Position numbers and translations under genes: made by a program. From a virus: a DNA stretch of 64,000 nt. The stretch lies in IMG/VR virus record IMGVR_UViG_3300046522_000297, positions 32,001 to 96,000 of that record; one strand, written 5' to 3'. The notes under the pieces are model-generated. The model was not told where the DNA came from, searched no databases, and was given only the letters and a program-made list of their open reading frames with translations. Below are positions 8,523 to 46,512 of this stretch, in pieces; the first letter of the stretch is position 1, and the number at the start of each line of letters is the position of its first letter.

Positions 8523-8693
8523 TTACTAAAATCGAGTTAGATAAAGATAACCGAATGCTTCGCATAGGCTTCGGTAAGAATGAAGGTAAATGGTTTATCC
8601 GTGTTGATCTTTGGACACACGGATATCGACTTACCGAGAAGTAAAATAACTCCGGCATTTAAATAGATGCCGGATATTAATAGAATACTAAGC

Positions 8694-8780
8694 TGTCCAG
8701 TGACCGGAACTGGCATCGGCCCCGGCTGTTAACCGGGTATGGAGTGAAATCCTTTGCAGGTTCGAAGCCTGCCTGGACAG
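8694..8780 (+). tRNA. tRNA-Asn(GUU), long variable arm, no encoded CCA
   Basis: CCCGG-CTGTTAA-CCGGG anticodon arm, GCAGG-TTCGAAG-CCTGC T arm. Confidence 0.75.
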
Positions 8781-8789
8781 CTTAGTGTT

Positions 8790-9356
8790 CTAACGTTTAA
8801 GTTTTAAATACTGTTTCCTGACAGCGTTGTCTGAAACCCCAAATTTAGTACCGAGAGTTGTCATAGGGATTTTCTGCACTTCAATAAGATCAATCAGGTC
8901 AACCGAATTCCAGTCCACCCTTCTACGCATAATAGCCGCACATTTGTTAGAGCAATACGAAAGGGTGCTAGATTTTTCTGAACCACATACCGGGCAACTA
9001 TCACGGATAGGGATAATGGAAACAGACCTACCGTTAGAGTTGAAATTAAAAAAGGACCTATCTAATCTGGAATAAGTTTCAGGAAGATCTGAAATGCCTG
9101 CGTGTACTTCTCGGTGGCAATTTGCACATAGGAGTATGCATTTATCAAGTTCATTCAGAATGGAGTCTAATTTAATTGGGTTAGCTACTATTTTACCGAA
9201 CGAGAATTCCTTCTGAGAAGGATCTATATGATGGAACTCTAAAGCCGAGTTACATTTATCGTAAAAACAGATTTGACATCTGTTACCCATAGCTTCGACT
9301 ATACGGGTTTTAGTTGATTGTCTCCAGTTTTTTACACGTTGTGACGAAGTTAGCAT
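8790..9356 (-). CDS. Free-standing HNH endonuclease
   Basis: CQIC...LEFHHIDP...LLCANCHREVH plus a zinc ribbon and C-terminal HTH. Confidence 0.85.
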   Translation of the reverse strand: MLTSSQRVKNWRQSTKTRIVEAMGNRCQICFYDKCNSALEFHHIDPSQKEFSFGKIVANPIKLDSILNELDKCILLCANCHREVHAGISDLPETYSRLDRSFFNFNSNGRSVSIIPIRDSCPVCGSEKSSTLSYCSNKCAAIMRRRVDWNSVDLIDLIEVQKIPMTTLGTKFGVSDNAVRKQYLKLKR

Positions 9357-19332: not shown

Positions 19333-19941
19333 ATGGTAGACCTCGCTAAGGTAGCACAGTATGACTTCGTAGTTCTCGTTGATAAATCCGGTTCCATGGC
19401 AACTAAAGACGTTAAGTCAGGTTGGTTTGGATCCAAATCCCGTTGGGAAGCGATCGAGAAAACCGCCATCGTCTTTGCTCAGGACCTGGAGAAGATTGAT
19501 AAGGATGGTATTGGTTTGGTTCTATTCGGAGGAGATGTCAAAGCCTATCCGAATAGCAACGCAGATCAGGTAGCAAAGGCGTTCTCCTATAACTCCCCTG
19601 GTGGTGGAACTCCCCTTGCAGAAGCCCTGCAGACCGCGTTGGATCTATTGAAGGATTCCAAGAAGAAGAAATTCATCATGGTATTCACTGATGGCGCGCC
19701 TAATAATCGCCAGGCTGTGAAAAACCTCATCATCAATCAGGCTAATGGCCAATCCACGGACGACGAGTGTACCATCCTATTCGTACAGGTAGGCAACGAC
19801 ACCGGGGCTACCAAGTTCCTTACGGAGCTGGATGATGATCTCAAGGGAGCGAAATTCGATATCGTAGACGCCAAGACTGCGGCTGAAGCCGAGAAGTTCT
19901 CGTCGACTCTGGAGCTGGTTGTCCACGCTATCGGAGATTGA
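19333..19941 (+). CDS. von Willebrand factor A domain protein
   Basis: MIDAS DKSGS, GGTP, VFTDG. Confidence 0.88.
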   Translation: MVDLAKVAQYDFVVLVDKSGSMATKDVKSGWFGSKSRWEAIEKTAIVFAQDLEKIDKDGIGLVLFGGDVKAYPNSNADQVAKAFSYNSPGGGTPLAEALQTALDLLKDSKKKKFIMVFTDGAPNNRQAVKNLIINQANGQSTDDECTILFVQVGNDTGATKFLTELDDDLKGAKFDIVDAKTAAEAEKFSSTLELVVHAIGD

Positions 19942-22878: not shown

Positions 22879-23331
22879 ATGGAAGCTAAAACCTTCTCCC
22901 GTGATTCATTCGTCTATCGTTTCCTGGCATGGCCTACCGGTAACCTGTGGTTTTCCGTGCCATACGATATCTGCCAGCTCCGCCGGGACGTTATCTTGAA
23001 GATTTTTCTGCTGCTCACCATCGTTTCGGCGACGTTCGGGTACGCTTACAGCGTCACATCTTACGTGCTGTACGAGATGAGTCAACTGTTCGGCGGCGTC
23101 TTCGGCACCCGTGGATTAACAGAGATCGTAAAATTCGGGGGTGCCCTCACCTACATCACCTTGCTGTTTGCAGCTTTGGCAGGGATTTTCTGGGCTCTCG
23201 ATAAGGCTCAGAAGTACTTCAGCCGCCGTAAATGAGAACGTGATGGTCTTCCCCCGAAACCCAACGGCCCGGTCAAGGAAATGTACCTGAGCTGGAAGAA
23301 CAAACTCTGCTATCGAATTGACTTTCAATAA
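22879..23331 (+). CDS. membrane protein with in-frame TGA at 23233-23235 (readthrough or nonsense allele)
   Basis: Frame continues ERDGLPPKPNGPVKEMYLSWKNKLCYRIDFQ* with matching codon style. Confidence 0.55.
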
Positions 23332-23418
23332 TTAGCGGATCTCTGGTATAATAACAGTGTGAGGAACTTTAATGTTCCTTGCACTGTTCAAATATAAACC
23401 TCAAATTTTAGGATTAAC

Positions 23419-24081
23419 ATGGCGAAAGTAAAAAAATCAATCACCCGTCTGTTGGCAGAACGTAAAGCCCTGGAAGATCGTATCAACAAGGCTACTTCGG
23501 TGCCCTTCATCGGTACCATGAAAGGTACCCGCACTCCGACTGTGGTTGGCTACACCGGCCATGGCGTTGAGCAAATCTCCAATCTTTTCAAGGGAAACCT
23601 GGACAAAGTGCGGGGTCTGATCAGTTATCACAACCGTATCACTGCGGCTCTGGTGGAATCGAACGCTACCACCAAGGTCAAGATTGGTGAAGAAGAGCTG
23701 ACCGTCGCTGCAGCTATCGAGCGCAAGAAGTCGATTCAATTCGACAAGCGCCTCCTGGCTACACTGATCAATCAGTCTTCGCAAGTTCAAGGTCAACTCG
23801 ATCTGGCAAACCGTCAGGTTGAAGAAATGATCGAACGCCAGCTGATCAACATCTATGGTTCTGGTGACAAGGCAAAGCTGACTGCGGACCAACGCAAAGA
23901 AACCGAAGATGCGATCCGCGCCCAGCATCAACAGGCCCCGATCGATCCGAACAAGATCGCTGACCTGGCTCGTGCTGAAATGGAGCGCATCAGTAAGTTC
24001 GAAACCGAAATCGACTTTGTCCTGTCGGAAAGTAACGCCAAGACGGAAATCGAGCTCGACGACGAGACTCCCGTAGCCTAA
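23419..24081 (+). CDS. Coiled-coil protein, resembles DIP1984/DUF6847-like family (from recollection)
   Basis: SITRLLAERKALEDRI, ALVESNATTKV, TVAAAIERKK, EIDFVLSESNAKTEI. Confidence 0.6.
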   Translation: MAKVKKSITRLLAERKALEDRINKATSVPFIGTMKGTRTPTVVGYTGHGVEQISNLFKGNLDKVRGLISYHNRITAALVESNATTKVKIGEEELTVAAAIERKKSIQFDKRLLATLINQSSQVQGQLDLANRQVEEMIERQLINIYGSGDKAKLTADQRKETEDAIRAQHQQAPIDPNKIADLARAEMERISKFETEIDFVLSESNAKTEIELDDETPVA

Positions 24082-24088
24082 AGACTTC

Positions 24089-24455
24089 TGCCACACCACA
24101 TTAGTTGAACCATAACCTGACGAACAGGTGATCATCCGGTTCAGGGCCGAGAACTAAAAACGGCCAACCTAAGCCCCCTAAGAAGGGCTGCCTAAAGATA
24201 ATGGAGCTCTTCACTGAGCAATCGACTTCTAATCGATCCGTATATAATGCATATACTTTAAATTAAAGTCAACGTTCATTACCTCAAAGGTCAAAGGTTA
24301 AAGCTCAAACTTCAAGCTATCATAAGTTTAAAGTTAAAAGCTCAAGTATTACAACGCTCTTTCAAACCCATGGTTAACGTTTATGAGGGTTCAGGAATAG
24401 CCTCTACTTGTACGCATGGCTGTCAGCGTTGTGGTTCAACTAATGTGGTGTGGCA
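24089..24455 (+). ncRNA. About 370-nt structured RNA closed by a 28-bp stem, with internal heptamer repeats
   Basis: 24089-24116 pairs with 24428-24455 (27 Watson-Crick + 1 GU); followed by a terminator at 24458-24488. Confidence 0.75.
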
Positions 24456-24524
24456 CAGATCCCTAGTTTCGACTGGGGATTTTTTTTAGCTCAATTAAGC
24501 TCATCCGTTTTGGTATAAGATTAG

Positions 24525-24597
24525 TGTCATGTAACTCAGCGGTAGAGTGCTAGAACCTTTCTAGAAGTCGCCAGTTCGATTCTGGTCACGGCCTCCC
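24525..24597 (+). ncRNA. tRNA-like RNA with collapsed anticodon loop
   Basis: Canonical D (ACTC-AGCGGTA-GAGT) and T (GCCAG-TTCGATT-CTGGT) arms; CTAGAA-CCT-TTCTAG; promoter at 24511. Confidence 0.6.
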
Positions 24598-24630
24598 CGA
24601 AAGGGGAGTTTATTTAGTCAAACAGGAGAT

Positions 24631-24936
24631 ATGTCAGTGCCTATTTCATTTCAAGAAATTCAAAATAACATTGATCAAAGCATCGTGTCTAGAGTGATCC
24701 GAACCATTGACGGTAAGTTGTCGGATCCCACTTACGCAAGGGAATGGATGTGTAATTCGGATACTAACCCAACTTATCGATTTGCAATCCCCGGCTCGGT
24801 GACCGACTACGAAAAGAAGGCTATTATTAACACGTATATGAACGTGGGATGGGGCACCGTGGAGGTTAAAAACTCCTCTGAAAACGGTGAGCGTCCCGGT
24901 ATGGTCGGTGTTGTATTGAAACAGCACGCTGAATAA
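24631..24936 (+). CDS. hypothetical protein
   Basis: 101 aa, AGGAG RBS. Confidence 0.7.
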   Translation: MSVPISFQEIQNNIDQSIVSRVIRTIDGKLSDPTYAREWMCNSDTNPTYRFAIPGSVTDYEKKAIINTYMNVGWGTVEVKNSSENGERPGMVGVVLKQHAE

Positions 24937-27577: not shown

Positions 27578-29692
27578 ATGAATCACTCCGTAGCAACTAT
27601 CCCGCGTCGTCCGCTCGCTACCGCCGTCACTCAAGCTCTGTCGGCTCTCAAGACGGTACGTGCTGCTGCAGCTGAGGATGAGTCGAATTCGGTCAACACC
27701 GAACTCGCCATTTCCCCGGAACTCGACGCTGCAGTCGAAGACGTCATCGCCCAAGCCAAGGCCCTGGAACTCCTGGAGCCGGTCAAGGCAGAACTGCCGA
27801 AAGTCGACCTGAGCACGGTCGTCGAATTCGTCCCGGTCAAGAACAAGATCGGCCGCTACCGCATCGTCTCGACGAAGCTGCGCCAGTTTATCCACGATTC
27901 CACCGATACCGGCTTCATGTCGGAAAAGATGCTGGAATCGATCCACGACAGCGAAGAGCAGAAAGCAGCCCGTCTGCGTATCTCGCTTATCGATCTGGAA
28001 GCGATGTTCCGCAGCTTCCACGACTTCGCCTCGATCGATGAAGACGACGTCAAGTCCTCGGCTTCCGGCCTGACCTGGCCCGAATACAAGACGATGTTCG
28101 ACGACCTGAACCAGCGTTATAGCACCTGGCTGGAAATGCGTCGTGCTGCTGCACAAGCCAAACATGACGCACACATGGCTCAGTTCAACAGCGGCGTGGC
28201 GGACTACGAAAGCACGCTCGTCGGCCTGAAGGGTGAATCGATCAAGCGTCTGAACGGCACGGCGATTCCGTACGTGTTCGATATGGGTGGCCAGAAGATC
28301 GTCGGCAAGATCACCAATGCCCGTGAACAAGAACACCCGATGATGGGTAAGTGGATAGAAGTCCGTTACGAAATCCACACCCACAACGGCATCGGCCTGT
28401 CGAGCACCAACCACAAGCTGGATATCCCGATCTACGAAGGCGTAGCTTCGCTGGAATCGCTCGGCCTGACCCGCCTGGACAAGTGCTCGGAAAGCGTGAA
28501 AGCTGCCCTGATCGCCCGTGGCGAGAAGTACCTGAAGTTGCACGAGAAGCCGGCGTACGTCATGTCGACGGGCAATATCACCCGCAAGGAAGGCCGCAAC
28601 ACGTACCAATTCAACGCCAAGGGTCGCGCCATGGTCGATATCCTCGGCCATCGTCAGATGGATACGAACTACTACGCACACTTCCACGTGGCGGATCCGG
28701 ACGGCATGGAACCGGACGACTACATCCCGATGTCGAAGGTCGACGACTACATCAAGATGAGCTGCAGCCCGTACCTGTACGGCTTCTCGTTCAAGGCCAA
28801 ACTCTGGGGCGAAATGCTCGTCGACCAAATCACGGAAATCCAGTTCCGTGACGACGTCTACGACAAGCTGGTCCTGGACGATGCCACCAAGCGCATGATC
28901 TTCGCTCAAGTCACCGATACCGGCGACGCTGACACAGATCTGATCGCTGGTAAAGGCGTCGGCTGCATCGCCCTGCTGGAAGGTCCTCCGGGTGTCGGTA
29001 AAACCCTGACGGCGGAAGCTGTCTCGGAAACCCTGAAGCGTCCGATTTACTATGTGTCGGTCGGCGAACTGGGTACCAGTGCTCGTTCGCTGGAAACCAA
29101 CCTGAAGGAAATTCTGGAAATCGCAGCTTCCTGGAATGCCATTCTGCTGCTGGACGAAGGTGACGTGTTCCTGGAACGCCGTGACAGCCACGATCTGGAG
29201 CGTAACGCCATGGTTGCCGTGTTCCTGCGTCTGCTGGAGTATTTCCCGGGCATCATGTTCCTGACGACCAACCGTGCCGACAACATCGACCCGGCCTTCG
29301 AGTCCCGCATCACGCTTTGCATCCACTACAAGGATCTGGACGCAAGCAGCCGCTTCAAGATCTGGACGAACCTGCTGAATGCTGCTAAAATCAAGAGCAT
29401 CAATACGGAAGCCATCGATCGTCTGTCGCACTTCAAGCTGAACGGTCGTCAGATCAAGCAGGTGATCAAGTCGGCGGGTGCACTGGCTCGTTTCGAGAAG
29501 CGCAACCTGGAATACGACGACTTCATGACCGTCATCCAGCAGAAGGAAGACTTCAAGAAGGCCACCGTCTACCAGCTCGGCAAGGGTCTGTCTGACGACA
29601 AGGCAGCAGCACCGGTGAAGGAAGTGGGCCTGGTCCGCCGTGTGTGGAACGCCCTGGTCAACAACGGCCAGAGCCTGGGTCAAGGCCAGTAA
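27578..29692 (+). CDS. AAA+ ATPase
   Basis: Walker A GPPGVGKT, Walker B LLLDE, LTTNR, DPAFESRI. Confidence 0.92.
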   Translation: MNHSVATIPRRPLATAVTQALSALKTVRAAAAEDESNSVNTELAISPELDAAVEDVIAQAKALELLEPVKAELPKVDLSTVVEFVPVKNKIGRYRIVSTKLRQFIHDSTDTGFMSEKMLESIHDSEEQKAARLRISLIDLEAMFRSFHDFASIDEDDVKSSASGLTWPEYKTMFDDLNQRYSTWLEMRRAAAQAKHDAHMAQFNSGVADYESTLVGLKGESIKRLNGTAIPYVFDMGGQKIVGKITNAREQEHPMMGKWIEVRYEIHTHNGIGLSSTNHKLDIPIYEGVASLESLGLTRLDKCSESVKAALIARGEKYLKLHEKPAYVMSTGNITRKEGRNTYQFNAKGRAMVDILGHRQMDTNYYAHFHVADPDGMEPDDYIPMSKVDDYIKMSCSPYLYGFSFKAKLWGEMLVDQITEIQFRDDVYDKLVLDDATKRMIFAQVTDTGDADTDLIAGKGVGCIALLEGPPGVGKTLTAEAVSETLKRPIYYVSVGELGTSARSLETNLKEILEIAASWNAILLLDEGDVFLERRDSHDLERNAMVAVFLRLLEYFPGIMFLTTNRADNIDPAFESRITLCIHYKDLDASSRFKIWTNLLNAAKIKSINTEAIDRLSHFKLNGRQIKQVIKSAGALARFEKRNLEYDDFMTVIQQKEDFKKATVYQLGKGLSDDKAAAPVKEVGLVRRVWNALVNNGQSLGQGQ

Positions 29693-45869: not shown

Positions 45870-46512
45870 TGTCCAGAATTTTTGGACACTGTCCATTTTC
45901 TCAGGACATCTGTCCACCTCTATACTATCAACAAACAAAGCATATATAGAAATTAATGTCCAATTGTCCAAAACGTCAAAAATAAAATTGGACACTCTAA
46001 GTCTTTGATTTTAAAAAGAAAAAGGGCAAAGTGTCCAGTTTTTTGAGATTTTCTGAAAAACATACACCAACCTTCGTGGAGAGAGTTGGGGAGAAATCAG
46101 TAGAGCCTACCCTACCCTCAACAAATCTGCTTTTATGAATTCCCCTATTCCCCCTCTATTCACTGCCTCTCTATATATATAATATATAATATATAAATAA
46201 TAAATATATATATATATAGGTAATATGACGCAGTTTTTTGACTCGTAGAGGTTGATAGGGCTTCTCCCATTTTTCCAAAAATTCTGCGATATTTTTTATA
46301 AAGGTGGGTGTATGTTTTTCAAAAAATCGAAAAAAACTGGACACTTGGCCTATAAGGCTAGTAGACACAAGCGAAAAGGGTGTCCAGTTTTATTTTCCTA
46401 TTTTTGGACACTCTGGACACCTTCTCTAAATGTCTTTATTTTAAAAGGGTTTTAAGTGTCCAGTGCGCACAGTGAAATTGGACACCTGTCCAAAAAACTG
46501 GACACTTGTCCT
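45870..46512. repeat. Symmetric iteron array around an A/T tract: probable replication origin
   Basis: 16 exact TGTCCA/TGGACA copies (8 per side), 40-bp inverted repeat 46029-46068/46306-46346, pure A/T tract 46172-46218. Confidence 0.7.

Follow-up and report, generated by a model that had tools for sequence, protein, structure and literature searches.

A gene for a 220-aa protein and the structured RNA encoded directly behind it form a conserved pair in the 64,000-nt stretch of virus DNA analyzed here (hereafter the window), which is part of a 114-kb virus record in IMG/VR, and in a widespread set of other phages. The RNA, 367 nt long in the window, is closed by a 34-bp helix, designated P1, and is followed by a terminator. 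By sequence comparison it belongs to a conserved RNA family that is tied to genes of the T5.085 type. As the linkage between gene and RNA is near-universal, the two are co-transcribed, a motif of the RNA recurs in the gene's leader and a homodimer is predicted for the protein, the best reading of the pair, on which our judgement is evenly poised, is a self-contained early phage module that would make an autoregulated protein-RNA particle. The sequences are sufficient to establish the RNA family, its fold, its periodic tract, the co-transcription and the gene linkage, and from these we infer the binding of the protein to the RNA, a translational feedback, and the way in which the ends of the RNA are formed. 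The features of the module in the window, all on the plus strand, are as follows.

23344-23352, plus strand: extended -10 promoter TGGTATAAT, read by eye
23354-23387, plus strand: hairpin in the 5' untranslated region (ACAGTG.. / ..CACTGT, loop TTTAAT), by direct reading, in the window only
23387-23421, plus strand: leader with heptamer-like units across the Shine-Dalgarno sequence AGGA and the start codon, by direct reading
23419-24081, plus strand: open reading frame (ORF call) of the 220-aa helical protein, T5.085 / phrog_1491 family
24089-24122, plus strand: 5' arm of the closing helix P1 (28 bp + 6 bp), by direct reading, fold and family pairing
24124-24130, plus strand: 5' strand of the long-range pseudoknot, ACAGGUG, partner 24405-24411, from cognate versus non-cognate duplex energy
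24138-24165, plus strand: 5' H-type pseudoknot, with stems S1 (24138-24142/24151-24155) and S2 (24145-24149/24161-24165) and an A-rich loop (24156-24160)
24172-24256, plus strand: variable region with four small hairpins (24172-24189, 24206-24219, 24221-24238, 24240-24256), from the minimum-free-energy fold and direct reading
24257-24347, plus strand: heptamer tract with one UYAA core per 7 nt, including strict arrays at 24284-24316 and 24328-24346
24353-24420, plus strand: conserved 3' domain (AAAYCC, Px, Py, GGC), covered by covariance model R1
24368-24372/24415-24419 (Px), 24385-24388/24401-24404 (Py) and 24405-24411 (3' strand of the long-range pseudoknot), plus strand: elements inside the 3' domain
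24421-24455, plus strand: 3' arm of P1, with a bulged C at 24427
24457-24490, plus strand: intrinsic terminator, an 11-pair stem (24457-24482) followed by a T run

A preliminary description of this DNA had reported a promoter at 23344, a 220-aa helical ORF, an RNA starting 8 nt past its stop codon, a 28-bp closing stem and a terminator, together with small hairpins and heptamer repeats inside the RNA, and all of these are present in the sequence. To that picture the present analysis adds two pseudoknots, heptamer-like units that overlie the ribosome-binding site of the gene, and the family itself. The outer part of P1 pairs 24089-24116 with 24428-24455 over 28 bp that include one G.U pair, and the inner part pairs CTGACG (24117-24122) with TGTCAG (24421-24426) inside the single bulged C, giving 34 bp in total; the arm sequence has no second occurrence within the window. 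The 406 nt at 24085-24490 fold with -142 kcal/mol, compared with -93 +/- 6 kcal/mol for shuffled sequences (z = -8.2). Promoter, gene and 367-nt RNA are, as read from the sequence, one transcript, space for a separate promoter being absent. A scanner for -35/-10 pairs omits TGGTATAAT because there is no -35 element at the correct spacing; a near-identical box, TGGTATAAG, precedes the tRNA downstream of the module. Within the variable region, the hairpins at 24206-24238 resemble the D arm (a GCUC/GAGC stem) and the anticodon arm (a 5-bp stem with the 7-nt loop CUUCUAA) of a tRNA, and the Rfam tRNA model found no match to them. The conserved UUCAAAUCC was considered as a tRNA T-loop and rejected because its pairing partner lies downstream. 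Likewise, a reading of the heptamers as mimics of anticodon loops was dismissed as numerology, the stems being absent.

The fold is supported by covariation. Unless stated otherwise, the structural counts are drawn from a set of 30 dereplicated RNAs with the P1 junction as anchor; an anchored script served to count P1 and the long-range pseudoknot because, in full-length MAFFT alignments, seven sequences, that of the window among them, have their 5' ends misplaced. P1 was paired in 95% of cells, compared with 58% when partners were shuffled (maximum 69%), with 4-6 pair types at each position, and its innermost pair was G.U in 27 of the 30 RNAs, as it is in the window. In a hand tally of the pairing table, G.U pairs outnumbered A.C pairs by about 92 to 4, an excess which indicates that the folded molecule is RNA from the strand of the gene. 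In the long-range pseudoknot, about 7 nt just past the 5' arm of P1 pair with a segment immediately 5' of Px; cognate duplexes averaged -6.4 kcal/mol and non-cognate duplexes -2.9 kcal/mol, and compensatory switches were found among close relatives (AAAGAU/AUCUUU versus AAAGAA/UUCUUU, and GUUGG/CUAAC versus GUCAG/CUGAC). Px was 98% paired, and three of its five pairs, none of them ever broken, change on both sides, while Py was weaker, at 70%. The 5' H-type pseudoknot with its A-rich third loop was found in 26 of the 30 RNAs (36% of shuffles), mostly at an offset of +17 to +21, with stem sequences that differ among lineages. Between it and the heptamer tract lie hairpins that vary in length and content from lineage to lineage. 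Judged from these sequences, the closing helix, the long-range pseudoknot, the 5' H-type pseudoknot and Px all covary.

The linkage of RNA and gene was followed through virus and bacterial genomes. A blastn search of the region against phages returned no match, and relatives were reached solely by protein- and model-level searches. An IMG/VR search gave 461 contigs with the pair, from which 80 loci were collected. Among 48 dereplicated loci, 30 have an uninterrupted helix of 12-28 bp that closes 255-464 nt, the helix sequence varying by locus. A sequence-only hidden Markov model (HMM) of the 3' domain matched 58 of 84 loci, once each and always on the plus strand. The covariance model R1, built on the same domain, gave one same-strand match 170-400 nt behind the gene in all 30 viral sources tested, which include the 26 loci negative with the HMM as well as phage T5, and no further match at E <= 1 across 228 kb of those sources. 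In the window, R1 scored 59.9 bits (E 2.5e-10, 24353-24422), a match expected by construction because the window sequence is in the seed alignment; this locus is the sole credible R1 match in the 114-kb genome, where the RNA is single-copy. Matches at loci outside the seed lend the family independent support. Of the four most distant phage homologues, R1 matched three (Bcp1, Lactococcus PMBT69 and Salmonella phage 41), and the fourth, an Erwinia jumbo phage, carries a divergent, larger copy that was read by eye. The pair was placed in 172 of approximately 185,000 bacterial and archaeal species genomes; the 80 listed loci are mostly from Bacillota, and R1 matched 79 of them, mostly in Lysinibacillus, Solibacillus, Bacillus, Brevibacillus and Paenibacillus. 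Behind the homologue in COT4, pVp-1 and a T5-like phage lies an unannotated gap of 367-442 nt, which contains an RNA of like anatomy. The preliminary description had suggested looking for a closing stem and repeats downstream of homologous genes, and this architecture does recur, with near-universal linkage. It had also called the unit self-contained, which is supported by the sequences: the gene-RNA pair persists across proteins that are just 27-40% identical, while the flanking genes change between lineages. Same-strand tRNAs lie within 2.5 kb at 27 of 47 loci.

Some copies of the RNA depart from the common plan. One IMG/VR lineage (L034, 3226-3302) has a tRNA-Thr, called by ARAGORN, within the RNA itself, past the 5' domain and ahead of the heptamer tract. 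In the Erwinia jumbo phage (L114, 2255-2345), the copy has an insert that reads as a circularly permuted tRNA-like piece, in which a T arm and 3' acceptor strand precede a 5' acceptor strand and D arm. A Parabacteroides metagenome-assembled contig (L182) contains two 3'-domain matches (2337-2408 and 2699-2766) behind one copy of the gene, which may reflect a tandem duplication of the RNA.

The heptamer tract is periodic. When a strict array is defined as three or more UYAAR units spaced 6-8 nt (or 13-15 nt) apart, the only such arrays in the window are those at 24284-24316 (5 units) and 24328-24346 (3 units), and shuffled windows have 0.4 arrays. Over the 30 RNAs, the autocorrelation of the tract reached 0.435, 0.410 and 0.362 at lags 7, 14 and 21 and fell to 0.21 in the troughs. 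The invariant A columns of the family alignment stand exactly 7 nt apart, which indicates that the heptamer register is fixed relative to the scaffold. The core U-Y-A-A is kept even where the unit differs, as in UUAAGUA of Vibrio phages and GGUCAAC of another group.

Units of the same kind occur upstream of the gene. In the window, the leader reads UUCAAAU AUAAACC UCAAAUU UUAGGAU UAACAUG and holds two strict UYAAR motifs. Counted over the 45 nt upstream of the start codon, leaders of the family genes contain 1.30 UYAAR motifs on average, compared with 0.53 in composition-matched shuffles and 0.33 in the leaders of 195 other genes of the same loci with Shine-Dalgarno-bearing starts (Mann-Whitney p = 9e-11 against these 195). 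Two or more motifs were present in 39% of the family leaders and in 4.6% of the 195 others (Fisher p = 7e-9); both p-values overstate independence in that the compared sequences are related. The leaders of T5-like, Otagovirus-like and gut phages carry the units in a 7-nt register that continues as far as the Shine-Dalgarno sequence. Such enrichment is what one would predict for a protein that recognizes the heptamers and regulates its own translation.

The protein itself matches the phrog_1491 profile over its full length (E 5.6e-52, residues 5-214 against profile positions 4-210 of 211). Its homologue in phage T5 is T5.085, annotated as a hypothetical protein, and tblastn found homologues with 27-39% identity in 736 of approximately 50,700 phage records, including T5-like phages, Otagovirus, Vibrio pVp-1, PVP-SE1, Bacillus Bcp1, and Lactococcus and Clostridium phages. 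Members of the T5.085 / phrog_1491 family are frequently labeled "tail fiber", a label that we regard as unsupported because the gene lies among early and tRNA genes. The AlphaFold2 monomer (predicted local distance difference test, pLDDT, 88; predicted template modelling score, pTM, 0.68) is mostly helical, with long helices and a small sheet composed of an N-terminal strand, a hairpin at 86-95 and a C-terminal strand; the motif ESNAxT appears twice, preceding each of two sheet strands (partly a direct reading). Prediction of a two-copy complex gave an ipSAE of 0.68, a mark reached by 20 of 30 proteins whose solved structure is a pair of one chain and by 1 of 23 whose structure is a single chain; the best of 3 controls scored 0.00. 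Contact agreement between the homodimer runs was at least 97% and partner pLDDT at least 86. These predictions support a symmetric homodimer.

As for relatives outside the phages, the preliminary description had pointed to a resemblance to the DIP1984/DUF6847 family, and this resemblance may hold at the level of the fold only. The protein has no family in Pfam, NCBIfam or PADLOC, and searches of the Protein Data Bank (PDB) by sequence and by profile gave chance coiled-coil matches only. The top structural match was PDB 3kdq, a Corynebacterium diphtheriae protein without a known function, which the match spans in full (Foldseek E 0.022). In VIA, 3kdq aligned with the protein model at Z 10.8 and a root-mean-square deviation (rmsd) of 8.8 A over 150 of 152 residues, ahead of the next match at Z 7.9, although Z below about 13 for helical proteins may mean just a common arrangement. 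The nearest Pfam-bearing Atlas cluster was DUF6847 (score 0.87, TM 0.51/0.64). Against this, the PF20935 HMM (27-bit threshold) did not match the protein even at E <= 10, nor did NCBIfam. Compared with DUF6847 (PF20935; 3kdq), the present protein is about 60 residues longer, its rmsd is high, and its Z is below the trusted level for helical folds. The models thus leave the DIP1984/DUF6847 likeness as a remote fold-level lead rather than family membership, and one that explains nothing yet because DUF6847 has no known function.

How the ends of the RNA are made appears to differ among lineages. The 5' arm of P1 starts 2-85 nt past the stop codon across the family (median about 10), a distance short enough to imply that the RNA is co-transcribed with the gene. 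Behind the RNA, a terminator is present in 9 of the 30 RNAs, and a same-strand tRNA lies 2-11 nt past P1 in five; in those five the adjoining tRNA suggests that a cut by RNase P makes the 3' end. The preliminary description had proposed that RNase III releases the RNA from its long stem and that a phage RtcB ligase possibly circularizes it. Cleavage by RNase III is possible at the 34-bp P1 of the window, to judge by its length, but P1 measures 13-37 bp family-wide, with a median of just 17 bp, which argues against it as a general mechanism. Circularization by RtcB is not supported: the 5'-phosphate and 3'-OH ends that RNase III produces are not ones that this ligase can seal, and the ligase is missing from 5 of 5 other near-complete carriers (T5, pVp-1, PVP-SE1 and two more), for which reason we do not count it as part of the module.

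Put together, these features suggest the following course of events. As read from the sequence, the P1-closed RNA is locked at the P1 junction by the long-range pseudoknot and Px, and displays about ten UYAA-centred heptamers as a mostly single-stranded array. The dimeric protein would bind the heptamers in register, with the array serving as its assembly platform. Weaker copies of the heptamer lie over the gene's ribosome-binding site, so that once the array is full, surplus protein could repress its own translation, by the same logic as in the autoregulation of ribosomal proteins and in CsrA/CsrB. The 3' end would be set by the terminator in the window and by RNase P at the adjoining tRNA in other lineages. 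The habitual place of the pair in phage tRNA arrays suggests a role in host RNA/tRNA metabolism or in host takeover.

Several observations weigh against this particle. Conserved adjacency would also be expected of an RNA that acts alone and is simply transcribed together with the gene. In the fold of the window RNA, small hairpins can form within part of the tract, and the tract may therefore not be fully single-stranded. About one lineage in three lacks the leader enrichment, and A-rich leaders are common in phages. The protein is near neutral rather than basic (family median isoelectric point 6.2, range 5.1-7.9), and Pfam and NCBIfam searches detected no recognized RNA-binding domain in it. 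These last properties are what one would expect if the RNA does not need the protein encoded next to it and functions by itself or together with host factors, in the way proposed for GOLLD and ROOL, an explanation that we consider rather unlikely but that deserves serious weight. The tract would then act as a sponge or decoy, either for a single-strand RNA-binding protein of the host or for the main decay endonuclease, or it would be part of a tertiary or multimeric fold, and the protein gene would just share the transcript or encode a chaperone. The elaborate architecture, with its two pseudoknots and conserved unpaired nucleotides, and the location in tRNA arrays, like that of GOLLD and ROOL, fit such an RNA, and AAAG|UUY resembles the preferences of RNase E and RNase Y. 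However, an RNA acting by itself does not account for a near-universal linkage to the gene across proteins of 27-40% identity and changing neighbourhoods, and it leaves the heptamers over the protein's own ribosome-binding site unexplained; a host factor, moreover, would have to be common to Gram-negative and Gram-positive hosts.

The remaining explanations fare less well. That the RNA is a cis-acting element of the 3' untranslated region, giving protection from 3' exonucleases or RNase III retroregulation like that of lambda sib, would suit its co-transcription and its start close behind the stop codon, and the P1 of the window would suffice for RNase III. It is nevertheless improbable, because P1 is 13-17 bp in many lineages, because about 300 nt with two covarying pseudoknots and register-conserved heptamers exceed what protection of an mRNA needs, and because a tRNA within 2-11 nt in several lineages implies excision. 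We think still less of a toxin-antitoxin-like pair of type III, with a toxic protein that the repeat RNA would neutralize: a repeat-bearing RNA does adjoin a protein gene in one transcript, but its units measure 7 nt where about 34-36 nt would be expected, the RNA follows the gene instead of preceding it with a terminator in between, the helical predicted dimer matches neither ToxN/AbiQ nor any PADLOC model, and the module is found mostly in lytic phages. Of the options raised in the preliminary description, the protein-RNA particle is accordingly retained and the type III pair set aside. Finally, 28-bp terminal inverted repeats around an A/T-rich repeat tract might be those of a DNA-level element, whether a miniature inverted-repeat transposon, a replication origin or a set of protein-binding iterons. 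This is hardly conceivable for a single copy in 114 kb whose orientation relative to the gene is always constant and whose helices are kept by compensatory changes, the ratio of G.U to A.C fitting only plus-strand RNA.

The protein-RNA particle favoured here was compared with known systems. At the Rfam gathering threshold the whole window gave tRNAs only, and at E <= 10 the RNA region gave nothing credible, GOLLD and ROOL included. A fragment of one sublineage is already catalogued in Rfam, as RAGATH-27 (RF03100), an orphan candidate small RNA of 86 positions: the first 84 nt of the RNA of one gut-phage lineage (L067) score 94.7 bits against a gathering threshold of 76.1, and this lineage alone reaches the threshold. 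The overlap consists of the 5' arm of P1, the CG|AAAAC junction and the first hairpin. The RAGATH-27 model has a single hairpin after 46 unstructured positions and lacks the closing helix, the pseudoknots, the heptamer array, the 3' domain and the link to a protein; it found no match at 23300-24700 at E <= 10 or in 10 other lineages at E <= 1, and no paper on it turned up in the literature searched. GOLLD and ROOL are likewise large, intricately folded phage RNAs of unknown function in tRNA gene arrays, but the present RNA is smaller (255-464 nt) and has periodic heptamers and a dedicated protein gene, whereas GOLLD and ROOL are, according to a preprint, RNA-only assemblies (bioRxiv 10.1101/2024.12.08.627333).

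With TRAP and the trp leader, and with HutP and the hut leader of Bacillus subtilis, the pair shares short units at fixed spacing and, by analogy, might share their binding by an oligomeric reader. The preliminary description had drawn the parallel with TRAP; the regular 7-nt period holds family-wide, but the protein has no Pfam or NCBIfam match to the TRAP or HutP families, and the resemblance is therefore one of mode and not of membership. CsrA with CsrB/RsmZ is similar in that units overlap a Shine-Dalgarno sequence while a separate RNA holds many copies. The present system differs from all three in its unrelated helical fold, in a UYAA heptamer in place of the GAG/UAG triplet or GGA, and in an array that a knotted scaffold carries and that shares its transcript with the protein gene. 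Ro60 and Y RNA have in common with it solely a stem formed from the 5' and 3' ends, and the adjacent protein had no TROVE match in the Pfam search. We also considered whether the module belongs to the anti-defence island of T5, a region of about 8 kb deleted in the T5n strain, and rejected this: T5 Rad is a different protein of 189 aa (bioRxiv 10.1101/2023.03.15.532788), and the shorter T5 record AY692264 keeps the RNA, which suggests that the module lies outside the island. T5 has in addition a separate, annotated RNA of 719 nt, 'RNAX, stable RNA with unknown functions' (AY543070 40848-41566; L110 4447-5165), which lies about 1.6 kb downstream of the module and adjoins tRNA-Arg.

About 22 tRNA genes lie in the window, together with genes for an RtcB ligase and HNH endonucleases and with many small ORFs; this layout fits the early/tRNA region of T5-like phages. 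The following neighbouring genes lie within its tRNA region, the first two of them 4-8 kb upstream of the module.

15768-16973: RtcB RNA ligase gene (E 8.6e-125)
19333-19941: gene for a 202-aa vWA-domain protein
27578-29692: gene for a 704-aa AAA ATPase

Directly past the module, a tRNA at 24525-24594 scores 38.5 bits in Rfam and was missed by ARAGORN; it has its own promoter-like box, the TGGTATAAG mentioned above, and a terminator at 24593-24608. Elsewhere in the window, a tRNA with the anticodon CUA (11313-11388), which ARAGORN calls Pyl and which the Rfam tRNA model scores at 63 bits, could be an amber suppressor belonging to the tRNA array of the phage. A 20-nt inverted repeat with 95% complementarity (8681-8792) brackets an 88-nt tRNA-Asn gene (8694-8781) and may form an extended precursor helix. 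At 46025-46350, 50-nt arms with 90% complementarity surround 226 nt with a (TA)n-rich centre (fold z-score -13); this intergenic segment, at which ORF strands diverge, resembles an element that acts at the level of DNA, for example a replication origin or a regulatory palindrome.

The literature searched, whose coverage is incomplete so that an earlier description is possible, yielded no description of the gene-RNA pair, and the RNA of about 360 nt between T5.085 and T5.084, on the minus strand at AY543070 43141-43505, is unannotated in all 60 T5-like records listed among 440 matching. We tentatively propose, as a fair possibility and somewhat short of an even chance, that the pair represents a new class of phage ribonucleoprotein, in which a dimeric DUF6847-like protein would sit in register on about ten heptamers of a doubly pseudoknotted scaffold, with a stoichiometry set by feedback on its own ribosome-binding site, and would act in trans early in infection on host RNA/tRNA metabolism or host defence. 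Despite decades of work on phage T5, this RNA, which it carries, has stayed unannotated there, and the analysis also corrects a widespread misannotation of the adjoining gene product as a "tail fiber protein". The module is directly testable in T5 and E. coli K-12. With its two-pseudoknot RNA, its heptamer sequence ruler and its dedicated protein, it would lend itself readily to work on a new mode of protein-RNA recognition, and it offers a route to the function of the large RNAs found in phage tRNA arrays.

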